Shown here: in pieces, positions 17,930 to 49,238 of the stretch
Layout of the letters: every line of letters starts with the position of its first letter
Numbering within the stretch: the first letter of the stretch is position 1
Assembly: GCA_951406725.2 (NCBI GenBank)
Contig: OX597816.1
Coordinates: 153,078,001-153,142,000, forward strand
Length of the DNA: 64,000 nucleotides
Reading direction: 5' to 3'
Source: Octopus vulgaris
Lineage: Eukaryota
Translations under genes and position numbers: made by a program
The notes under the pieces: model-generated
The model's database searches: none
What the model was told of the DNA's origin: nothing
What the model saw: only the letters and a program-made list of their open reading frames with translations

Positions 17930-18390
17930 ACAATCCTTTCTCCTATAGTCACAAGGCCTGAAATTTGGAGGAGGGGGCTAGTCGATTACATGAAGCTCAG
18001 TGCATAACTGGTACTTATTTCATTGACCCCGAAAAGATGAAATGCAAAGTCAACCTCGGTGGAAATTGAACTCAGAACATAAGGATGGATGAAATGCTGC
18101 TAAGTATTTTGTCTGGCATGCTAATGATTTGACCAGCTTTGTCGCCTTACATGTATAATAATAATAATAACAACGGTTTCAAATTTTGGCACAAGGCCAG
18201 CAAATTAGGGGGAGGGGCTAAGTTGTTCACATCAACCCCATTGTTCAACTAGTAATTAATTTATCAGCCTCAAAAGGATGAAATGCAAGTTGACCATGGC
18301 AGAATTTGAACCCAGAACATAAGGATGGATGAAATGCTGCTAAACATTTTGCCTGGTGTGTTAATGATTCTGCCAGCTCAGCGCCTTACA
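17930..18390 (-). mobile_element. Two adjacent, CpG-decayed, complete copies of the tRNA SINE superfamily targeted by the Tx1 LINE
   Basis: Each has a tail, the gaccccgaaaagatgaaa core, a B box and a head; many CG to TG/CA changes relative to 49005-49238. Confidence 0.8.
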
Positions 18391-32087: not shown

Positions 32088-32240
32088 GACGGGCTTCTTT
32101 CAGTTTCCATCAACTTAATCCACTCACAAGGCTTTGGTCGCCCTGAGGTTATAGTAGAAGACACTTGCCCAAGGTGCCATGCATTGGGACTGAACCCGGA
32201 ACCATGCGGTTTGTAAGTAAGCTACTTATCACACATACAC
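31215..32240 (-). mobile_element. CORE-like tRNA SINE family copy, split at its internal (TA)n by the Penelope-like fragment
   Basis: The two halves match the intact copies at 1900-2270 and 52350-52860 (GGCACCTTGGGCAAGTGTCTTCTACTATA core; GCGGTGCTCCAGCATGGCC tail). Confidence 0.8.
31444..32053. mobile_element. Penelope-like pLTR fragment with direct and inverted repeats and a degenerate hammerhead-like motif, inside the (TA)n tract of a SINE
   Basis: 23-bp direct repeat (31444-31466, 31895-31917); 49-bp inverted repeat (31549-31597, 32005-32053); minus strand CCUACG-CUGAGA...CGAAACGUA-CGUAGG (31613-31696). No coding sequence recognised. Confidence 0.5.
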
Positions 32241-32547
32241 TCCTACGCCTAAATCCAATACTATCTTTACACTGTTTAGTTTCGTTCCTTTAAGTTCAAA
32301 TTTCAAAATTCCACCAATGTCTGCTTTGCTTTCCATCTCTGTGAATAAAAGTAAGAAGCAGGCATATAATGGAATCAGATCAATAATCTTATTTATGATA
32401 CACTCTAATATATATATCAGTGGCTTTATACCAATGGAAAGAATGGAACTGAACACGTTTAGCTTGGTGTTTTACAATCCCCGTCTCCTTCTGTCCGTAT
32501 TTGTTGATAATTCTTTCTACTATAGGCCAAGGCTTGAAATTTTTTAA

Positions 32548-33860
32548 CACTAAGAGGACCGGACTTTTCAACTATTAAAGACCAGAATGAGTCAATTGAC
32601 GCAAAGATGTTTTTCAATTTGAAAAGATAAAAAAAAAAAGAAAAGAAGTAGGAAACCTTTATTAAATATATGAATCTATTGAATTTTATGACTTCACGGT
32701 GATATTAATCACAGTAATTTGATATTTTGAAAGAAATTTATCGAAATTCTAAACATTCATCGCAATTTTTAGCGCACATTTGCGGAGGCTTTTTACAGAC
32801 TCCACCCATTCCTGTGGTACTGTTTCGGCATTTTCTTTTCACACATGTACGTCTGACTTTATTCCTAGGGGTAGATGTTTCCTCAATAGGGTGTTTGATA
32901 ATACTTGAACTACTGTGAAAGGAATCACCACAAAGTTCTTCAACAACTTTTTGAATATATTCCCGTTGACTTATGACTGAGATGCTAACACTTGTTAGCC
33001 ACATGTGCGGCAGACGAAATACGGCTACGCATTTCGTCCGGCGTGCTAACGTTTCTGCCAGCTCGCCGCCTTGAGCGGACCTATGATTAATGGCATTCTT
33101 TTGTGTCCATTCCAATAATTATTTTCAGGTAATATGTATCGTGGCTACATTGCCCAGTATGTACGAATTTAAGACAGCGATTAAGAGTGCGATTTCAAAA
33201 AGATTAGGGGATTGTTATTTCTAGCAGATCGAACAACCATGCAGAAGTTTACTCGTTAGTTCCAAACGCCTTCTTGTCAAGATACATGATTAGGTATCGT
33301 GACAAGCGATACTTCTTACTGGATAGCAAGCCTAACGTGTTTAACATCTAGGAGGATTTGAACTCATTAAAGCTCTCGTTAGTTTTACTCTGTCACTGCA
33401 ACAACCAAAATATTATTTAAAAAGGGTAAATTGGCCATTGTCTACTGTTTACTTTGATTGAATAAAGCCTTGCCATTTGTTGAAGCACAACTACGTCTGC
33501 CTTATTTTTATTACAAAAAAAGTATGGTGTTAGGCTTCTCCTTGGGGTTATTTACAGAAGGAACTTCTACATGCTGATATAAGGTACTTAAAACAACAAC
33601 AAACTTTTTGCATTGGTATGATGTGTGACAGTAGGCTTCTCTGTGGATTTCAAAACCACAGTTTCATGGAGTAGTTTCACCTGTTCTGTTTTAACGAATT
33701 GTTCCGACTAAACAAGTTTCGTTTTGCGAGCTGTAAAGGCTATGCAATTACTGAATATCTAAAACGTCACATGTATTTATAAGCAAAAGCAGGTGCAAGT
33801 TTCAAAAGTTACCAATGCGTCAACTGACGCATGTGGTCTTTATAGGTAGAATGTGGTTTA
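32548..33860 (-). mobile_element. Internally deleted piggyBac-like DNA transposon interrupted by segment A; its right part is duplicated at about 39850-40310
   Basis: TTAA at 32544-32547; imperfect inverted ends (aaagaccagaatgagtcaattgacgca versus tgcgtcaactgacgcatgtggtcttta); decayed transposase motifs LVGTIR, KPNTILF..KNK.DV...QMARLYSIK..SRQWP and a Cys-rich tail ISQREYIQKVVEEL..RRTC..KCRN..CKKP. Confidence 0.8.
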
Positions 33861-33920
33861 TTATTTTTTTTACAGTTGATGTTTTTTACAGTTCAACTAC
33901 TATAAACGCACGTATCATAC

Positions 33921-34104
33921 CTATTTCTTTACTACCCCTAAGGGGCTAAACACAGAGAGGACTAACAAGGACAGACAAACGGATTAAGTCGATTATATCG
34001 ATCCCAGTGCGTAACTGGTACTTAGTTTATCGACCCCGAAAGGATGAAAGGCAAAGTCGACCTCGGCGGAATTTGAACTCAGAACGTAACGGCAGACGAA
34101 ATAC
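33921..34104 (-). mobile_element. 3' part of a tRNA-derived SINE (B box, conserved core, Tx1-type tail) split by the LINE; duplicated at 40371-40554
   Basis: Minus strand GAGTTCAAATTCC (B box), GCCTTTCATCCTTTCGGGGTCGATAAA core and tail ending GTAGTAAAGAAATAG; collinear with the intact copy at 49005-49238. Confidence 0.9.
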
Positions 34105-34351
34105 GAATTTCTTTATTGCCCACCGGGGGCCAAACATAGATATGGACAGTACAACTGATGGGATCAGTGAATCGATATGATTTTACATAAATGTGACATC
34201 AAAAATAAAATACAATACATAAAAATCGAATGGAATACACAGTACAAAAACAATACAAATGAAGCGATGATCAAGTTACGCTCCGATCCCACAAGCCCCG
34301 ATCTACCGCTGATACCTTTTTATTTTTCCTTTTTTTTTTTTCCTCGTCTAT

Positions 34352-37300
34352 TCACACGGTTCCTTGCACGCACAACACTCGTGCAACATACTTCCATCTC
34401 TTTTGGAACGTACACTCTGACAGACACCTCTTCTCCAGCCACAGTTTCCTTTTCAAATGAAAAGAAAAAAAGGATCGTAAATTGTCACCAGAGATAAAGT
34501 TACCTGTCTTAATTCCTTTTATCCTAGTATTCCATACAGCCTCTTTTGCTATTGCTACAACCGTGAGAAAACAATTCTTACCTTCGTTCGTTAGAACTCC
34601 CGGTGGGTCAATTTTTATAATTGACTCAGTCGACAGCCGTACTCTTCCTTCGCCGGACAACAGATGTTCAGCATAAGCCCACATTTCAGTTATCTCCGGA
34701 CACTGAACAATAGCGTGAGGGACGGTTTCCCTGTCCCCCCGCATCTTGGACAGGTCGGCGACTGACGTTTACCATGTCTTGCGAGCTTATCCCAAACGGG
34801 CAAGGCACCTCTGTAGCATTGCCAGGTTAAGGACTTTTGGAAGTTGTCCAACGTTCTCAACCCGAATGTACGATGAAACAAGCTGTCCAGTTGAATAAAT
34901 CCGAGACCTAGAGTCGACCCCAGGCCATCGTCGCATTCAGACTCTACCAACCCACTATATAAAATCCGTGTGGAACCCCCACCGCTGGCGTTGCCCGAGC
35001 GCCGGAACAGCAAGAGGGCCTTACGGCACTCTTTATGCCACTCACTCGACCTCGGTCTACGAGAACACCAGGCTTCCTGTTCGCAAAAACTCTTGAGCTC
35101 AGGGAACATTTGTCTGGCCAGCGGAGACCACACCCGTTCACTATCCAGGAGAATCCAGAGGTGCCTCAACCTCAACGCATGTCTGCGCATCATTAACCAA
35201 GGCATCCCTAAACCTCCATTTAAAGGCTTTTGACAGCAGACAGAGCGTTTCACAAGTGGCGACCTGCCCTTCCACAAAAAGCGAAAGAGCTGTCTCTCCA
35301 ACCTGATCAACCACGAATCCGGACAGGGCACGACAGTCAGGCGGTAGGTAATGACTGATGCGATAAACACATTGGCCACCTCCGCCCTCCCTTTCAGGGA
35401 TAGCCACCGCCAAGACCAGGTCTTGACTACTGCAGCCACCCTGCTCAATACCTCCGTCCAGTTCTTCTCTATCTGGAGGCCTGGTCCAAACCAGACTCCC
35501 AGCAACTTAACCGGTCCCTCCGTCCAGCGCCTAACAACACTGTCTGAAGGCATCGACTTGCCAACCCAGGTGCCGAGCTGCAAGCCGACCGACTTTTCCC
35601 GGTTAATCTTTGCTCCTGCTACCTCCTCGTAAGCCTCAATAGTCTTACCTACTTCACGTAGGCGTGCCACTGTGGTTACACTGATAGTGATATCATCCGC
35701 GAAAGCCGTAACAAACTCCTCTAGTCCTGGTTCTCTCGGGATGCCACTCAACCTTTGCAGTAATGGCTCGAGAGCCATCACATACAAAAGTGGTGAAAGC
35801 GGACATCCTTGACGAACCGAGCGTCTGATGCAGAACGGCTTCGAAAGGAAACCGTTCACCCGAACTATCGAGTCAATGTTGTGGTACAAAGCGATAAACC
35901 ACCTGAGGAAGCCAAGACCCAGGCCAAACCGCGCAAGTACAGTCGCTAGGTATCGATGGTCAACCCTATCAAAAGCTTTAGACTGGTCCAAATGCACCAA
36001 TGCCCCACCTTTGCCAGATTTATTACCAACCTCTCTATGGTATAGCGAATAAGATGGAGGGTATCCTGAATGGTTCTGCCTGGGATGGCACATGTCTGTG
36101 CCTCCCCGACTATACCATTCGCGACACGCGCCAACCTTTTTGCTAGAACCTTGGCCAAAATCTTCACTTCTGCGTTTAACAGAGTGATGGGCCTGAAATT
36201 CTCTAGAACGTCCCCCTTGTCCGGGTCCTTTCTGACCAACGTCACTACTCCCCGGCGCACAGATCTGGGGATAAACCCATTCTGTTTCCAGTTCGCGTAC
36301 ACGTCAGTCAGTAGTTGCCCGAACAAGTCTGGCATACATTTATATAGCTCGTACGGAAGACCATCAAGTCCCGGTGACTTACCCGCTTTACAATCGGCCA
36401 AAGCCTCCATCACCTCCTCAAGTGTGATTGGCCCTTCGCAAGACTCCGCATCCGACCCCGAGAGGCACGGCAGCCCGGTAAGAAAATCCTCGAGGGCTCT
36501 CCCACCACCAGGACCGCCGTCACCCCCGAACAGCTGGGTGAAGTACTCCCGAAAGACCTCACACATTTTCTCGGGTTCGTTTATCAAGACACCATTTTGA
36601 TTCGTCAAAGACCGAATAGAGGAACTATTTCCTTGCCGAGCTTCCACCACTCGGGCCCATCCAGCGGCCTTAATTCCTTCACTTCCCATTGCACGTAACT
36701 TAGCTCTGGTAATACTTCCCATGTGGTGGGCTTCAAGATGCTGGTTTAACTCCAGTCTTTTCACCCTCGCTTGGTCTGTATTACCAGTCCTCCAGGCTTC
36801 TTCTAGTTCCTTAACTAGACCATCTCCTATTTTACGTCCCTTCTTAGCTAAACTTATGCTAAATCTAATAGACTCATATTTGATGGCTCTTTTTAGGGCG
36901 TACCACCATTTGTTATTAATGATGGTACCTGTTAATGCCCTTTGTATTAACATCTTGATCCGCTTTCTGTACTCCTCAATCGCCAAAAGGGACGTATTGA
37001 GTTTCCAGTAGCCAGATCCCTGTCTATGCAACTTATCTACCGTCAGTTTACAGGTAACCATCTTGTGGTCACTGTAGCTGACTAGAAAAAACTGTGGACA
37101 CTCAACTATGGACTTATCTTTTTCTCTAATTAAAATCCTATCTAGATATGTTCTGGTAGACCCGTCACTATTTGACCACGTCCACTGTGGAGTGTTCGGG
37201 TGTTCCAACCTATATGGATCTGCTAGCTGAAATTGACTTAGCAGATCCCGAAAGCCTGGGTTACATTTTCTGTTCATGTTCGAGTTTGAGCCAACACAAT

Positions 37301-37750
37301 CTGTGTGTGCTGCACATATTGTATTAGAGTCTCCTAACACTACTAGTGAATGCGACGTGGCTAGGAACCTTCCTAGGCCACGAAAATATTCAGTTTGCGG
37401 GCCAATAATGTTTGGTGCGTAAATAGCGACCAGCCTGATTGTCTTGCCACAACTGAATGTCAAGTCGAGAACGACCAGCCTGCCTTCTGGGTCAGAAAAA
37501 ACCAACTTTTTCTCGGCTACCCGGTTTCTGTTTAGTAGGACCAACACCCCACCCCACCTCCCGCCCGACTCGGAGAAACGTATTTCTCGTAGCCGTTCAG
37601 GAGGGGTAGCAGATCTCTTGGCCCCTTCACCCGGGTTTCCGTTGCAACAATTACATCCAAATTTCTCGACCTGATGTCATTTAGAAAGCGTCCTTGCTTC
37701 CAGCTTGACAACAGGCCATGAACATTTAAACAACCAATGTGAATAGACAT
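34352..37750 (-). pseudogene. Tx1 LINE copy 1 ORF2 (APE endonuclease, reverse transcriptase, CCHC), frameshifted
   Basis: GCLNVHGL, ATETR, AIYAPN, YLDRIL, SDH, GYWKLNTSLL, KSPGLDGLPYELY, DQSKAFDRVDH, RQGCPLSPLLY, FADDI, CPRC..ETVPHAIVQC, split across four ORFs. Confidence 0.93.
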
Positions 37751-37753
37751 GAC

Positions 37754-39290
37754 TTACCTGTTTAATTAGGATTGTCCGGTGGAGGGGGACCCTCCACCTT
37801 TTTTTAATCCAGGGTCGGAGGTGGACGGTCTTGGGAAATAGATTTGTCAAAATCCCGTCTCACCACCGACACAGAATTATCAGGCGGAGGGAGAATCTCC
37901 ACCTTTTCCTTTTCTCGCGGGATCGGGGCTGGTAATCCATGAAATATCGACTTGTTAAAATCTAATCTCAATGAAGATACAGTCTTTCTGTATTTATTTT
38001 GTAGAATTCTATAAGTCTTATTTGAGACTTCATATTTGTCATAATTGATAAATTCCTCTGAAAGGTTATCTATTTTTTTACAGTCTTTATGAGTTGAATG
38101 TCTCTCATGAGCTCAGTATCTTTAGTGTATACGGCTATTATGCCTTTTTCTTCTTTTTCTCTTCTGGCAGTCTTTTTTGGTCGTTGTTCTGTAGTAGTCG
38201 CCGCTCTCGGCTGGGTTGCTGGTTGTATTTTTCTTTTGTTTGTTGTTTTTTTCTCATCTGTTTCTTCTTTATCTTCTTCCTCTTTGTCTTTTTTCTCCTC
38301 TTCCTCCTCTTCTTCATTTTCCTTGCATTTCCTTCGAATGTGGCCTAATTGACCACATAAAAAAACATCGAGGTTTTCGGCCCTCAACAAACACCACGAG
38401 GGTCTCCTCCCCTACCTCAATTGTCTCGGGAATAGCTTGAATTATTTTAGGGTCCGCTTGAATGAGAAGATTAATTGTTTGACCATCCCAGCGTGGGTTT
38501 TCCGTAGCGGTAACCTGGAGGAGAGTAATTTTTTCTACCTCTTTGATTAGGACTGCCGCCAACAACCACATATGTTCGACCTCTGGCGGGACCCTTGTAA
38601 TTTTTATTCTCGACGTCCTCATCCCCATATAATAGGGGATGAGCTCCACGTCGTTCGTTTTCAACGTTTCAATTGAGTTCTTGTGTGCTATTTCTTTATT
38701 GGTGAACCTTACTTCCACCGTTCCGAATTTTTTCCTCTTCTCAGATATACTACGTCGCCCCATATTGGCTTTAAGCACTTTTCTATTTTCTCTTCTGACA
38801 TTCTTTCAATTTTTCTTTTTTGTAGACAATATGTTTTGAAAATTATTGTTTCTTGCTTTTCTTCTTGTAATAACTTTTGCGGAGGTTCAATTTTCACACC
38901 GTTGTCAGTTATTTTCATCATTTTGGCTGTATTTCATAAAGTCGCTTTTATTCGTCGACAGTATCGGGTTCCACCCCCAGCAGCCAACGCAAAACTTTTT
39001 TTTCTATTTTTTGGTTCTATCTGGATGCTAGGCACATCAATTATTCTCTTCGACACAATGCCTTTGTTCTCTGGCAAAGTCGGAAGCTCTTCTGGTGAAA
39101 GTTCTGACGAGCCCTCAGACACATCTCCAAAAATATCAAATATATTATCCTCTCTGCTATTCCTTCTTGTAGCGGGGGAAACCCCTATTTCCTTGTCTGT
39201 AGTTGGCTCCTCGCCGGACATGTATTTCCTCCTCTCAACAGGAGAAACAAGTATTTCTGCTCCAACGGTAGGCTCCATGCTAGACGACAT
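37754..39290 (-). pseudogene. Tx1 LINE copy 1 ORF1 (gag-like, CCHC zinc knuckle, acidic/basic tract), frameshifted
   Basis: VFVEGRKPRCF-LCGQLGHIRRKC across a homopolymer frameshift; lies directly upstream of ORF2. Ends are approximate. Confidence 0.85.
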
Positions 39291-39455
39291 TCTTCCCCCC
39301 AAAGGGGGAATGAACAACGCGTGCTACCACAAGCACTAAGTGTTTTCAAATTGAAAACTCCAACAGTTAAGTTATTCAACAGTTTAACAAGAAACAACAG
39401 TTGTTAACAATATTAACACCACGAAACAGCAATTCTTACTTCACGAACACATGTG

Positions 39456-39520
39456 CGGCAGACGAAATACGGCTACGCATTTCGTCCGGCGTGCTAACGT
39501 TTCTGCCAGCTCGCCGCCTT
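39456..39520 (-). mobile_element. 5' tRNA-like head of the same SINE (also at 33008-33072 and 45905-45969)
   Basis: Minus strand AAGGCGGCGAGCTGGCAGAAACGTTAGCACGCCGG with an A-box-like motif; matches 49174-49238. Confidence 0.9.
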
Positions 39521-40800
39521 GAGCGGACCTATGATTAATGGCATTCTTTTTTGTGTCCATTCCAATAATTATTTTCAGGTAATATGTATCGTGGCTACAT
39601 TGCCCAGTATGTACGAATTTAAGACAGCGATTAAGAGTGCGATTTCAAAAAGATTAGGGGATTGTTATTTCTAGCAGATCGAACAACCATGCAGAAGTTT
39701 ACTCGTTAGTTCCAAACGCCTTCTTGTCAAGATACATGATTAGGTATCGTGACAAGCGATACTTCTTACTGGATAGCAAGCCTAACGTGTTTAACATCTA
39801 GGAGGATTTGAACTCATTAAAGCTCTCGTTAGTTTTACTCTGTCACTGCAACAACCAAAATATTATTTAAAAAGGGTAAATTGGCCATTGTCTACTGTTT
39901 ACTTTGATTGAATAAAGCCTTGCCATTTGTTGAAGCACAACTACGTCTGCCTTATTTTTATTACAAAAAAAGTATGGTGTTAGGCTTCTCCTTGGGGTTA
40001 TTTACAGAAGGAACTTCTACATGCTGATATAAGGTACTTAAAACAACAACAAACTTTTTGCATTGGTATGATGTGTGACAGTAGGCTTCTCTGTGGATTT
40101 CAAAACCACAGTTTCATGGAGTAGTTTCACCTGTTCTGTTTTAACGAATTGTTCCGACTAAACAAGTTTCGTTTTGCGAGCTGTAAAGGCTATGCAATTA
40201 CTGAATATCTAAAACGTCACATGTATTTATAAGCAAAAGCAGGTGCAAGTTTCAAAAGTTACCAATGCGTCAACTGACGCATGTGGTCTTTATAGGTAGA
40301 ATGTGGTTTATTATTTTTTTTACAGTTGATGTTTTTTACAGTTCAACTACTATAAACGCACGTATCATACCTATTTCTTTACTACCCCTAAGGGGCTAAA
40401 CACAGAGAGGACTAACAAGGACAGACAAACGGATTAAGTCGATTATATCGATCCCAGTGCGTAACTGGTACTTAGTTTATCGACCCCGAAAGGATGAAAG
40501 GCAAAGTCGACCTCGGCGGAATTTGAACTCAGAACGTAACGGCAGACGAAATACGAATTTCTTTATTGCCCACCGGGGGCCAAACATAGATATGGACAGT
40601 ACAACTGATGGGATCAGTGAATCGATATGATTTTACATAAATGTGACATCAAAAATAAAATACAATACATAAAAATCGAATGGAATACACAGTACAAAAA
40701 CAATACAAATGAAGCGATGATCAAGTTACGCTCCGATCCCACAAGCCCCGATCTACCGCTGATACCTTTTTATTTTTCCTTTTTTTTTTTCCTCGTCTAT

Positions 40801-43800
40801 TCACACGGTTCCTTGCACGCACAACACTCGTGCAACATACTTCCATCTCTTTTGGAACGTACACTCTGACAGACACCTCTTCTCCAGCCACAGTTTCCTT
40901 TTCAAATGAAAAGAAAAAAAGGATCGTAAATTGTCACCAGAGATAAAGTTACCTGTCTTAATTCCTTTTATCCTAGTATTCCATACAGCCTCTTTTGCTA
41001 TTGCTACAACCGTGAGAAAACAATTCTTACCTTCGTTCGTTAGAACTCCCGGTGGGTCAATTTTTATAATTGACTCAGTCGACAGCCGTACTCTTCCTTC
41101 GCCGGACAACAGATGTTCAGCATAAGCCCACATTTCAGTTATCTCCGGACACTGAACAATAGCGTGAGGGACGGTTTCCCTGTCCCCCCGCATCTTGGAC
41201 AGGTCGGCGACTGACGTTTACCATGTCTTGCGAGCTTATCCCAAACGGGCAAGGCACCTCTGTAGCATTGCCAGGTTAAGGACTTTTGGAAGTTGTCCAA
41301 CGTTCTCAACCCGAATGTACGATGAAACAAGCTGTCCAGTTGAATAAATCCGAGACCTAGAGTCGACCCCAGGCCATCGTCGCATTCAGACTCTACCAAC
41401 CCACTATATAAAATCCGTGTGGAACCCCCACCGCTGGCGTTGCCCGAGCGCCGGAACAGCAAGAGGGCCTTACGGCACTCTTTATGCCACTCACTCGACC
41501 TCGGTCTACGAGAACACCAGGCTTCCTGTTCGCAAAAACTCTTGAGCTCAGGGAACATTTGTCTGGCCAGCGGAGACCACACCCGTTCACTATCCAGGAG
41601 AATCCAGAGGTGCCTCAACCTCAACGCATGTCTGCGCATCATTAACCAAGGCATCCCTAAACCTCCATTTAAAGGCTTTTGACAGCAGACAGAGCGTTTC
41701 ACAAGTGGCGACCTGCCCTTCCACAAAAAGCGAAAGAGCTGTCTCTCCAACCTGATCAACCACGAATCCGGACAGGGCACGACAGTCAGGCGGTAGGTAA
41801 TGACTGATGCGATAAACACATTGGCCACTTCCGCCCTCCCTTTCAGGGATAGCCACCGCCAAGACCAGGTCTTGACTACTGCAGCCACCCTGCTCAATAC
41901 CTCCGTCCAGTTCTTCTCTATCTGGAGGCCTGGTCCAAACCAGACTCCCAGCAACTTAACCGGTCCCTCCGTCCAGCGCCTAACAACACTGTCTGAAGGC
42001 ATCGACTTGCCAACCCAGGTGCCGAGCTGCAAGCCGACCGACTTTTCCCGGTTAATCTTTGCTCCTGCTACCTCCTCGTAAGCCTCAATAGTCTTACCTA
42101 CTTCACGTAGGCGTGCCACTGTGGTTACACTGATAGTGATATCATCCGCGAAAGCCGTAACAAACTCCTCTAGTCCTGGTTCTCTCGGGATGCCACTCAA
42201 CCTTTGCAGTAATGGCTCGAGAGCCATCACATACAAAAGTGGTGAAAGCGGACATCCTTGACGAACCGAGCGTCTGATGCAGAACGGCTTCGAAAGGAAA
42301 CCGTTCACCCGAACTATCGAGTCAATGTTGTGGTACAAAGCGATAAACCACCTGAGGAAGCCAAGGCCCAGGCCAAACCGCGCAAGTACAGTCGCTAGGT
42401 ATCGATGGTCAACCCTATCAAAAGCTTTAGACTGGTCCAAATGCACCAATGCCCCACCTTTGCCAGATTTATTACCAAACCTCTCTATGGTATAGCGAAT
42501 AAGATGGAGGGTATCCTGAATGGTTCTGCCTGGGATGGCACATGTCTGTGCCTCCCCGACTATACCATTCGCGACACGCGCCAACCTTTTTGCTAGAACC
42601 TTGGCCAAAATCTTCACTTCTGCGTTTAACAGAGTGATGGGCCTGAAATTCTCTAGAACGTCCCCCTTGTCCGGGTCCTTTCTGACCAACGTCACTACTC
42701 CCCGGCGCACAGATCTGGGGATAAACCCATTCTGTTTCCAGTTCGCGTACACGTCAGTCAGTAGTTGCCCGAACAAGTCTGGCATACATTTATACAGCTC
42801 GTACGGAAGACCATCAAGTCCCGGTGACTTACCCGCTTTACAATCGGCCAAAGCCTCCATCACCTCCTCAAGTGTGATTGGCCCTTCGCAAGACTCCGCA
42901 TCCGACCCCGAGAGGCACGGCAGCCCGGTAAGAAAATCCTCGAGGGCTCTCCCACCACCAGGACCGCCGTCACCCCCGAACAGCTGGGCGAAGTACTCCC
43001 GAAAGACCTCACACATTTTCTCGGGTTCGTTTATCAAGACACCATTTTGATTCGTCAAAGACCGAATAGAGGAACTATTTCCTTGCCGAGCTTCCACCAC
43101 TCGGGCCCATCCAGCGGCTTTGATTCCTTCACTTCCCATTGCACGTAACTTAGCTCTGGTAATACTTCCCATGTGGTGGGCTTCAAGATGCTGGTTTAAC
43201 TCCAGTCTTTTCACCCTCGCTTGGTCTGTATTACCAGTCCTCCAGGCTTCTTCTAGTTCCTTAACTAGACCATCTCCTATTTTACGTCCCTTCTTAGCTA
43301 AACTTATGCTAAACCTAATAGACTCATATTTGATGGCTCTTTTTAGGGCGTACCACTATTTGTTATTAATGATGGTACCTGTTAATGCCCTCTGTATTAA
43401 CATCTTGATCCGCTTTCTGTACTCCTCAATCGCCAAAAGGGACGTATTGAGTTTCAAGTAGCCAGATCCCTGTCTATGCAACTTATCTACCGTCAGTTTA
43501 CAGGTAACCATCTTGTGGTCACTGTAGCTGACTAGAAAAAACTGTGGACACTCAACTATGGACTTATCTTTTTCTCTAATTAAAATCCTATCTAGATATG
43601 TTCTGGTAGACCCGTCACTATTTGACCACGTCCACTGTGGAGTGTTCGGGTGCTCCAACCTATATGGATCTGCTAGCTGAAATTGACTTAGCAGATCCCG
43701 AAAGCCTGTGTTACATTTTCTGTTCATGTTCGAGTTTGAGCCAACACAATCTGTGTGTGCTGCACATATTGTATTAGAGTCTCCTAACACTACTAGTGAA

Positions 43801-44200
43801 TGCGACGTGGCTAGGAACTTTCCTAGGCCACGAAAATATTCAGTTTGCGGGCCAATAATGTTTGGTGCATAAATAGCGACCAGCCTGATTGTCTTGCCAC
43901 AACTGAATGTCAAGTCGAGAACGACCAGCCTGCCTTCTGGGTCAGAAAAAACCAACTTTTTCTCGGCTACCCGGTTTCTTTTTAGTAGGACCAACACCCC
44001 ACCCCACCTCCCGCCCGACTCGGAGAAACGTATTTCTCGTAGCCGTTCAGGAGGGGGAGCAGATCTCTTGGCCCCTTCACCCGGGTTTCCGTTGCAACAA
44101 TTACATCCAAATTTCTCGACCTGATGTCATTCAGAAAGCGTCCTTGCTTCCAGCTTGACAACAGGCCATGAACATTTAAACAACCAATGTGAATAGCCAT
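40801..44200 (-). pseudogene. Tx1 LINE copy 2 ORF2 with shared frameshifts and an in-frame TAG at 43356
   Basis: ORFs 43982-44203, 43356-43997, 41139-43214 (uninterrupted RT core) and 40801-41193. Confidence 0.93.
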
Positions 44201-44203
44201 CAC

Positions 44204-45740
44204 TTACCTGTTTAATTAGGATTGTCCGGTGGAGGGGGACCCTCCACCTTTTTTTATCCAGGGTCGGAGGTGGACGGTCTTGGGAAATAGATTTGTCAAA
44301 ATCCCGTCTCACCACCGACACAGAATTATCAGGTGGAGGGGGAATCTCCACCTTTTCCTTTTCTCGCGGGATCGGAGCTGGTAATCCATGAAATATCGAC
44401 TTGTTAAAATCTAATCTCAATGAAGATACAGTCTTTCTGTACTTATTTTGTAGAATTCTATAAGTCTTATTTGAGACTTCATATATGTCGTAATTGATAA
44501 ATTCCTCTGAAAGGTTATCAATTTTTTTTACAGTCTTTATGAGTTGAATGTCTCTCATGAGCTCAGTATCTTTAGTGTATACGGCTATTATGCCTTTTTC
44601 TTCTTTTTCTCTTCTGGCAGTCTTTTTTGGTCGTTGTTCTGTAGTAGTCGCCGCTCTCGGCTGGGTTGCTGGTTGTATTTTTCTTTTGTTTGTTGTTTTT
44701 TTCTCATCTGTTTCTTCTTTATCTTCTTCCTCTTTGTCTTTTTTCTCCTCTTCCTCCTCTTCTTCATTTTCCTTGCAGTTCCTTCGAATGTGGCCTAATT
44801 GACCACATAAAAAAACATCGAGGTTTTCGGCCCTCAACAAACACCACGAGGTTCTCCTCCCCTACCTCAATTGTCTCAGGAATTGTTTGAATTATTTTAG
44901 GGTCCGCTTGAATGAGAAGATTAATTGTTTGACCATCCCAGCGTGGGTTTTCCGTAGCGGTAGCCTGGAGGAGAGTAATTTTTTCTACCTCTTTGATTAG
45001 GACTGCCGCCAACAACCACATAGGTTCGACCTCTGGCGGGACCCTTGTAATTTTTATTCGCGACGTCCTCATCCCCATATAATAGGGTATTAACTCCACG
45101 TCGTTCGTTTTCAACGTTTCAACTGAGTTCTTGTGTGCTATTTCTTTATTGGTGAACCTTACTTCCACCGTTCCGAATTTTTTTCCTCTTCTCAGAAATA
45201 CTACGTCGCCCAATATTGGCTTTAAGCACTTTTCTATTTTCTCTTCTGACATTCTTTCAATTTTTCTATTTTGTAGACAATATGTTTTGAAAATTATTGT
45301 TTTTTGCTTTTCTTCCTGTAATAACTTTTGCGGAGGTTCAATTTTCACACTGTTGTCAGTTATTTCCATCATTTTGCTGTATTTCATAATTTCGCTTTTA
45401 TTCGTCGACAGTATCTGGGTTCCACCCCCAGCAGCCAACGCAAAACTTTTTTTTCCATTTTTTGGTTCTATCTGGATGCTAGGCACATCAATTATTCTCT
45501 TCGACACAATGCCTTTGTTCTCTGGCAAAGTCGGAAACTCTTCTGGTGAAAGTTCTGACGAGCTCTCAGACACATCTCCAAAAATATCAAATATATTATC
45601 CTCTCTGCTATTCCTTCTTGTAGCGGGGAAACCCCTATTTCCTTGTCTGTAGTTGGCTCCTCGCCGGACATGTATTTCCTCCTCTCAACAGGAGAAACAA
45701 GTATTTCTGCTCCAACGGTAGGCTCCATGCTAGACGACAT
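44204..45740 (-). pseudogene. Tx1 LINE copy 2 ORF1, frameshifted
   Basis: ORFs 45492-45767, 44764-45573 and 44127-44840, with the CCHC knuckle. Ends are approximate. Confidence 0.85.
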
Positions 45741-46999
45741 TCTTCCCCCCAAAGGGGGAATGAACAACGCGTGCTACCACAAGCACTAAGTGTTTTCAAT
45801 TGAAAACTCCAACAGTTAAGTTATTCAACAGTTTAACAAGAAACAACAGTTGTTAACAATATTAACACCACGAAACAGCAATTCTTACTTCACGAACACA
45901 TGTGCGGCAGACGAAATACGGCTACGCATTTCGTCCGGCGTGCTAACGTTTCTGCCAGCTCGCCGCCTTGAGCGGACCTATGATTAATGGCATTCTAGCT
46001 GTGTCCATTCCAATAATTATTTTCAGGTAATATGTATCGTGGCTACATTGCCCAGTATGTACGAATTTAAGACAGCGATTAAGAGTGCGATTTCAAAAAG
46101 ATTAGGGGATTGTTATTTCTAGCAGATCGAACAACCATGCAGAAGTTTACTCGTTAGTTCCAAACGCCTTCTTGTCAAGATACATGATTAGGTATCGTGA
46201 CAAGCGATACTTCTTACTGGATAGCAAGCCTAACGTGTTTAACATCTAGGAGGATTTGAACTCATTAAAGCTCTCGTTAGTTTTACTCTGTCACTGCTAC
46301 TTAGGTACATTGATCTGTACCTCCTCGCTTCACTTATTTATAGCTAAATGGGCTGAGTCATTGAGAATTAAATGTCTTTGCCGATTTTATATTGCAGTAC
46401 TTGTAACGTGGAAATATACTAACACTGACAGGCTGACGACCAAGATGCCTATAAGTGAATTAGTATTGCTTTGTTTAGTTAAGCTCTGGACGAGGGAGTG
46501 AGAGAGAAAGAAAGAAAGAAAGGAAGGAAGGAAGGAAGGAAGGAAGGAAGGAAGGAAGGAAGGAAGGAAGAAAGAAAGAAAGACAAAGAGAGAAAGAGGG
46601 AGAGAACGGAATGGAGACAGGGATTGGGAGCAAACAAAGGTATAAAATAGCATCAAATGATTAAATAAAGATCTGATGTTCAAAAATCAAATTCCCATTC
46701 ATCTGTCGAATGCTATATGAAAATCCAATAAACAGATAAGCACAGAATCAAAGATCAAATCACCGAGGGAATGTGATATTTCTAATTAATACAGCTATAA
46801 GGAAATATCGAATTATCGAATTTGGTATCGAACCAACAAACCTTGAGATACTTGTGATAAAGAACCGATTGAAGTCAGATAAAAATTCCCCAGCAACCTT
46901 TATGGATTGGTGATCAAATAGGATGGATGAGAGACCTTCTAAATTCTAAACATCATGATATATCAATGTTTATATTTCTGCCATGAATATCAGTGGACA

Positions 47000-48055: not shown

Positions 48056-48577
<522 letters not shown>

Positions 48578-48665
48578 AAACACCCCCCATCCTTGGGCAA
48601 GTGTCTTCTACTATAGCCCGGGCCGACCAAAGCCTTGTGAGTGGATTTGGCAGGCTTGTTTTAAT

Positions 48666-49238
48666 ATTCTTTTCTACTCTAGGCATAAGGCCCGAAATTT
48701 TTGAGGAGGGGGCCAGTCGATTAGATCGACCTGAATACGCTACTAATACTTAATTTATCGACCCCGAAAGGATGAAAGGCAAAGTCAACCTCGGCGGAAT
48801 TTGAACTCAGAACGTAACGGCAGACGAAATACCTATTTCTTTACTACCCACAAGGGGATAAACACAGAGAGGACAAACAAGGACAGACAAACAGATTAAG
48901 TCGATTAGATCGACCCCAGTGCGTAACTGATACTTATTCAATCGACCCCGAAAGGATGAAAGGCAAAGTCGACCTCGGTGGAATTTGAACTCAGAACGTA
49001 ATACCTATTTCTTTACTACCCACAAGGGGCTAAACACAGAGAGGACAAACAAGGACAGACAAACAGATTAAGTCGATTAGATCGACCCCAGTGCGTAACT
49101 GATACTTATTCAATCGACCCCGAAAGGATGAAAGGCAAAGTCGACCTCGGTGGAATTTGAACTCAGAACGTAGCGGCAAACAAAATACCGCTTAGCATTT
49201 CGCCCGGCGTGCTAACGTCTCTGCCATCTCACCGCCTT
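48666..49238 (-). mobile_element. Nested head-to-tail SINE array: host SINE body (48666-48832), two Tx1-tailed units (48833-49004, 49005-49188) and one tRNA head
   Basis: Three SINE bodies but only one head; junction cggcagacgaaatac|ctatttctttac at 48832. Confidence 0.9.

Follow-up and report, generated by a model that had tools for sequence, protein, structure and literature searches.

A 64,000-nucleotide stretch of the Octopus vulgaris genome (contig OX597816.1, positions 153,078,001 to 153,142,000; G000:C3:153078001-153142000 in our notation, hereafter the window; genome 2.8 Gb) raises the question of why a short interspersed element (SINE) and a long interspersed element (LINE) within it end in similar 3' sequence. 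A previous sequence-only reading of this DNA proposed that a tail swap had made the SINE a client of a target-specific LINE of the Tx1 type. The present analysis supports a wider answer: the tRNA-headed SINE, which bears an L1/Tx1-type LINE tail, is likely copied by the open reading frame 2 (ORF2) proteins of such LINEs and would in this way insert into its own copies. The genomic pattern behind this is strong; the enzyme-level steps are inferred from it. Two features had escaped the earlier reading, namely that the SINE targets itself and that two target sites exist. LINE and SINE copies in the window both lie on the minus strand (Table 1).

Within the window, the LINE end at 34105 and the SINE end at 49007-49047 are collinear, as had been claimed, with 81% identity over 42 aligned columns (E 1.4e-4). 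Their local alignment scores 42, whereas 1000 dinucleotide shuffles reach 30 at most (z 9.7). Chance-level similarity, named earlier as an outcome that would overturn the idea, was thus ruled out as an explanation, the observed score exceeding all 1000 shuffles. The sequence strings on which the claim was built were all present at their positions, and the described GCCC-loop-GGG(C/U) hairpin was read in both elements: GCCC-CCGGU-GGGC in the LINE (34118-34130) and GCCC-CUUGU-GGGU in the SINE (49018-49030), each with a 4-bp stem and a 5-nt loop. Neither end carries poly(A); both pass directly into the target. A shared 3' end with a conserved stem-loop, the mark of a stringent SINE-LINE pair, is therefore present here.

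The LINE, family A1, encodes an ORF1 with a CCHC knuckle and an ORF2 with an apurinic endonuclease (APE), a reverse transcriptase (RT) and a C-terminal zinc motif, a domain order confirmed on copies L276 and L280. PF03372, PF00078 and PF13966 lie above cut-off on L276, ORF2 shows the motifs GDSN, SDH, FADD and CX2CX7HX4C, and the ORF1 knuckle (PF00098) reaches 22.9 bits on L280 against a cut-off of 20.8; the same profile search did not detect PF00098 on L267. Several of the 19 full-length A1 copies read (L267-L286) retain long uninterrupted frames, of up to 1,134 aa for ORF2 and about 520 aa for ORF1, which fits recent activity. Against solved references, the RT matches human L1 ORF2p with 159 bits and R2 with 77 bits, no CR1, L2 or RTE RT being among the matches, and the endonuclease matches L1 best. 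These comparisons support placement in the L1 group. A CCHC zinc knuckle in ORF1 is a feature of the Tx1 clade, and no Tx1-named protein was among the homologue matches. Where homologues were named, they belonged to Octopus, Argonauta and Sepia. The accessible text of PMC13295347 gives Tx1 and R1 as the only site-specific APE clades. From architecture, L1-group affinity and site specificity we infer a Tx1 type; L1-group membership and sequence-specific insertion by an APE element are supported.

The LINE target lies in the SINE. The 3' ends of 30/30 A1 copies (the best-scoring 30 of 40 listed, from 299 candidates, two of them the window duplicates) run into the same base of a SINE head; this site, hereafter S1, falls between the A box and the B box, and its constant use agrees with the target specificity proposed earlier. 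A SINE head also precedes the 5' end in 30/30 copies examined, and the older subfamily A2 uses S1 too. The two window copies represent one insertion event, because both lie within a 6,449-bp tandem duplication (33000-39852 = 39448-46300, 99.0% identity) of flank, SINE and LINE, one copy of which holds the LINE and SINE at 33921-39520.

The SINE is 234 bp long and has a tRNA-like head with A and B boxes read by eye; ARAGORN found 0 tRNA genes and Rfam 0 matches in the head, as expected for a diverged one. Solo copies have target duplications. Copies differ in tail (T1, T2, B and C), and the tail separates them by target. The T1 17-mer has 61,968 exact occurrences genome-wide (control 0), and S1 follows exactly in 29,926 of these (48.3%); the B 17-mer occurs 10,410 times, with S1 within five bases in 7 (0.07%). 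T1-tailed SINEs thus share the LINE target, and B tails do not. In 400 kb chosen regardless of SINEs, 18/32 T1, 0/11 B and 0/10 C ends lay at S1 (the sample also held 22 bodies without a classifiable tail and 3 tails without a readable end). In the resulting arrays, of which 48663-49238 is an example, 184-bp units follow one head, and a second head is almost always absent. Rough scaling gives about 170,000 T units in the genome. T-tail sequence was also covered in four sequencing runs with four organism labels, in which contigs break at the repeat.

A second site, S2, lies 33 bases from S1, inside the A box. LINE family B opens with SINE head sequence as far as the A box and terminates at S2; of ten ends whose tail could be read, seven continue into S2-type sequence, unlike the other three. 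Most family B copies seen are short and ORF1-only, and one has an ORF2 62-65% identical to A1. T1 was counted 29,926 times at S1 and 208 times at S2, and T2 723 and 1,824 times, respectively (odds ratio 363). The SINE tail variant thus predicts the insertion site.

Such a correspondence would also follow if the SINE RNA picked the site. The loosely specific endonuclease of any related LINE would then suffice, insertion succeeding where the RNA 3' bases and the 5' head pair with the target, and no S1-specific partner would be needed. The last bases of each tail variant do match its own site (T1 with S1, T2 with S2), two off-target T1 junctions (L068, L264) read GTAT where the target copy does not, a target-matching 3' RNA raises the accuracy of R2 (PMC6795142, accessible text), and the likely tail donor, family B, targets S2, yet T1 lands at S1. 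However, A1 and A2 LINEs use S1 exactly, a match of 4-5 bases is far too common in 2.8 Gb for 48% occupancy, and the double-head insertions described below still reach S1 without making use of 5' homology, which makes this account unlikely. Off-target T1 insertions retain a relaxed target preference: 120 ends at neither S1 nor S2 included 21 duplications, and where the duplication was clear and the end was the standard ATAGG, the target read GG in 9/10 and GGTAT in register in 6/10. A T2 set collected with a looser pattern, which took in T1/T3 ends as well, was set aside.

Arrays could instead have arisen at the DNA level, through unequal recombination or slippage, or descend from a small number of dimeric master SINEs, and the LINE would then simply have entered a common repeat. 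Tandem SINE arrays of bivalves and squamates have been attributed to recombination (PMC11481361, PMC10702118, accessible text). In octopus arrays of at least three units, 24/54 adjacent pairs are nearly identical, which indicates later local duplication, and the array head type does not track the host (types A:T are 15:12 in arrays ending in a B/C host, 21:8 in solo T and 6:19 in solo B/C copies). In dimers, by contrast, 24/26 pairs of adjacent T units resemble each other no more closely than copies drawn at random. The position of the junction is constant to the base and coincides with the LINE site, and arrays of this kind are never built from B tails. Hosts may be T, B or C and are older than the inserted unit: divergence is lower in the T unit than in the B/C host that lies behind (n=28, Wilcoxon p=0.005). 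A DNA-level origin is largely refuted for dimers and quite improbable overall, and arrays appear to begin by insertion.

Double-head junctions, in which a target copy is followed by a fresh head, bear on the same question. The genome-wide pattern yields 121 of them. In seven of the nine distinct loci among the first ten, a full T SINE lies between two target copies of about 14-15 bases, and at one locus a private host variant occurs on both sides of the T SINE; two of the nine show no return to S1. The target duplications of this class speak against a DNA-level origin, and the insertions with target copies on both sides look like ordinary target-primed insertions. The class is rare (121 vs 29,926 single-head junctions, the two patterns differing in stringency).

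At the LINE 5' junction, the heads joined to LINEs show hardly any variation between about -13 and +15 relative to S1, and farther upstream they show host-like variation (8.6% vs 3%). C stands at -1 in 29/29 LINE-associated heads vs 34/128 SINE heads. At +13, 14 full-length copies have T in the 5' copy, and 12 of these 14 have C in the 3' host copy (19 copies read of 20 fetched). Since the 5' copy often mismatches the host copy and a true duplication would match, an RNA-templated join, as in R2, is suggested; selection of rare host variants could account for the -1 bias, though not for the mismatch between the two copies. R2 itself has a restriction-like endonuclease. Its uniform 5' junctions have been explained by cDNA target sequence annealing to the target, with upstream 28S sequence on the RNA (PMC3774820, accessible text). 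R2 differs in having a hepatitis delta virus-like ribozyme, whereas an Rfam search gave no match near the gathering score at the octopus LINE 5' end. Side observations on the head are that a 7-8-bp hairpin there (window 45913-45932; SINE heads genome-wide) has S1 in its loop, towards the 3' side, and that two SINE head variants differ jointly at -6 and -1.

Which LINE supplied the tail was addressed by end-anchored comparison with the T1 consensus. Scored without gaps, so that families with indels score low, the window family A1 matches at 29/45, A2 at 33/45 and family B at 35-38/45 (up to 44/60). The window LINE, presented earlier as the partner by its tail, was rejected as donor because A2 and family B match better; derivation of the SINE tail from this LINE group nevertheless holds (family B 38/45, z 16). 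Family B would be the likeliest donor. The shared tail appears to mark the whole LINE group, because families in (ATT)n or unique DNA have it too. Sister elements L132/L061, L233, L236, L234 and L235 carry this tail as well, terminate in (ATT)n, (GTT)n or (TATC)n repeats and form a GGCC/GGCC stem; L061 is the only one in which ORF2 was seen. Family X (L256, L257, L265) sits in unique DNA, with a tail matching T1 at 36/45 in L256 and L257 and an ORF2 68-74% identical to A1 in L265.

A comparison of ages, proposed with the earlier reading, was run. Pairwise divergence is 0.8% in A1 (n=28), 7.5% in A2 (n=5) and 12.2% in family B (n=6); divergence from consensus is about 4.7% in T1 and 6.1% in T2, in regions and by measures that differ from the LINE pairwise values. 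A1 is younger than most SINE copies, and A2 (7.5%) rather than the too-young A1 appears to fit the T1 burst, as family B may fit T2.

It could also be supposed that the tail likeness is a relic or a convergence and that another LINE clade, RTE or CR1, now serves the SINE. Both clades are active in octopus (PMC13282606, accessible text), and no LINE partner for B and C tails turned up in 1.5 Mb. The 38/45 identity to family B (z 16), target sites shared with the LINE group and a T1 3' end that is not a simple repeat together render this explanation highly improbable.

The B and C tails are nevertheless not foreign to the system. The earlier reading had stated that the copies at 48663 and 17930 have another tail; they do, but that tail also has a 4-bp stem on a CUUGU loop. 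In copies with an exact CUUGU loop, pairs two and three of the stem are C-G in T1 (125 and 134 of 139), where B (33 and 32 of 44) and C (10 and 14 of 19) have G-C; pair four varies (G-U, G-C, A-U or U-A), and no tail pairs at position five. B and C tails thus keep the loop through compensatory stem changes, and the covariation check suggested with the earlier reading found such pairs between T, B and C stems. B tails lay at S2 in 3/61 cases. Among 107 B/C tail matches in 1.5 Mb no LINE with such a tail was found, and nine matches without a scored SINE body resemble truncated SINEs or chance matches. The related hairpins, no more than suggestive given that a 4-bp stem can arise by chance, may mean that the SINE was a client of related LINEs before the tail swap, and would weaken the idea of a single swap into Tx1 dependence. 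Taken as a whole, the earlier interpretation is partly supported.

The mechanism that would join these results can be laid out in order. The tail would have been captured from a family-B-like (S2) LINE, and T1 would then have been driven by an S1 lineage, most plausibly A2, given its matching age. The SINE RNA would end with the first target bases and pair at the nick. The cDNA 5' end would anneal to the homologous host head, hence the lack of a second head, and target sequence carried on the 5' end of the LINE RNA would give the LINE an equally seamless join. Arrays of at least three units would often extend by local duplication.

Several observations weigh against self-insertion driven by these LINEs. 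About half of T1 ends lie off S1. Family B, which matches the tail best, inserts at S2 instead and is seen mostly as short ORF1-only elements. Possession of the tail is not enough to determine the partner, since sister families X, Y and ATT carry it at positions outside SINE heads. The hairpin loop recurs in B and C tails, and no LINE bearing such tails was found in the 1.5 Mb. The head type in arrays is intermediate and not different from solo T (p=0.27), leaving host-head retention unproven. Many loci were picked by score or junction, and the C1 blocks are SINE-rich.

A more ambitious reading is possible rather than probable. LINEs of a Tx1-like clade would use the SINE head both as target and as their own 5' end; the SINE would repeatedly have taken LINE tails (C, B, T) and, with each of them, a site within its own promoter. 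Each insertion would be a new target, homology at both ends would give seamless joins, and this closed feedback loop would have driven much of the octopus SINE expansion and would seed SINE-derived tandem repeats.

The closest precedent appears to be the crocodilian SINEU/Tx1-Mar system, in which a SINE and a Tx1 element share a target inside another repeat, different families use two insertion regions, SINEs insert in tandem, and some Tx1 5' ends share SINE head sequence (PMC4494074). The differences are that the SINEU target is a Mariner DNA transposon and its heads derive from U1/U2, whereas the octopus target is the SINE's own tRNA-like head; that no LINE with the SINEU-1 3' end was found there, whereas the octopus tail is shared; and that SINEU tandem copies sandwich a duplication, whereas octopus joins are mostly seamless and copy number is far higher (PMC4494074). 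Tx1L, Keno, Kibi and Koshi are likewise L1-group LINEs with APE and RT that have fixed targets in repeats, RNA genes and microsatellites (PMC4494074), much as octopus sister families sit in (ATT)n. A literature search brought up neither a SINE that targets itself nor a Tx1 element with a SINE head as its target, SINEU being the only close case; Repbase, Dfam, the 1994 octopus SINE paper and supplements may describe these families. The accessible text of a recent octopus annotation reports active L1-Tx1 families and abundant SINEs and does not discuss targets (PMC13282606).

Stringent SINE/LINE pairs similarly share a 3' hairpin end with compensatory changes and no poly(A); only 3 SINEs among 58 pairs have L1-clade tails, with examples from monocots and a green alga, none described in the accessible text as site-specific or self-targeting (PMC3747384). 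The octopus system would be a SINE-Tx1 partnership with the SINE itself as target. The body of the octopus SINE may be a Meta domain, which in MetaSINEs takes up 66 bp behind the head. MetaSINEs, of which a cuttlefish member exists, also combine a tRNA head, a central domain and exchangeable tails, and their LINE partners are stated as unknown (PMC4824008, accessible text).

If the partnership is real, a SINE that is very abundant in octopus would gain a named partner, and the L1 group, in which poly(A) recognition normally prevails, would have an animal case of stringent 3' stem-loop recognition. Targeted insertion would lead to tandem repeats through a first step without recombination. With a LINE lineage and a SINE tail variant for each, S1 and S2 form a natural experiment on whether endonuclease or RNA end sets the target, a comparison that bears on site-specific retrotransposon insertion tools.

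Table 1. LINE and SINE features of the window, in window coordinates.
Position	Strand	Feature
40555..45904	-	LINE family A1 copy, 5,350 bp, ORF1 and ORF2, frames broken in this copy
34105..39455	-	Second LINE A1 copy, inside the 6,449-bp tandem duplication
34105..34150	-	LINE 3' tail common to the SINE; hairpin 34118-34130
33921..34104	-	Host SINE remainder: target S1, B box, central body, T1 tail (hairpin 33934-33946)
39456..39520	-	SINE head before LINE 5' end: A box, site S2, head hairpin, 15-nt S1 copy
40371..40554	-	Duplicate host SINE remainder, T1 tail
45905..45969	-	Duplicate SINE head before LINE 5' end
33000..33072	-	Third SINE head and first 8 nt of LINE, at duplication breakpoint
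49189..49238	-	Single head of three-unit SINE array
49005..49188	-	Array unit 1, 184 bp, S1 to T1 tail end
48833..49004	-	Array unit 2, 172 bp, T1 tail; private variants in common with unit 1
48663..48832	-	Host SINE remainder, B tail; outer duplication flanks whole array
17930..18145	-	Older SINE, B-type tail
18170..18390	-	Older SINE, C-type tail

The 6,449-bp duplication (33000-46300) has one breakpoint 8 nt inside the LINE 5' end, and could be genuine or an assembly effect. Another abundant repeat, apparently a different SINE family, occupies 48575-48650 and 32090-32250, and the SINEs studied here often insert in or beside it.

Further observations concern elements outside the window. L318 (G000:C2:14297058) has a further, unrelated 3' untranslated region with the shared tail, ends at S1 and is possibly a third S1 lineage. 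A short form of family B, about 1.5-2.4 kb with a SINE-head start and the LINE tail, was seen at L222:170-1850 (G000:C3:169065270-169066950), L220, L243 and L245, and some family B copies stand in tandem at S2. B tails paired 220-231 bp apart (G000:C1:4270780-4271016, 4423800-4424047 and 5556673-5556916) would be consistent with insertion at S2 or with head-to-tail stacking. Units of 64-69 bp that contain only the head, from its start to S1+15, form tandem runs at G000:C10:17996024-17996501, C5:87874785-87875486 and C13:69036080-69036320; the runs are possible repeated template jumps or nascent satellites.
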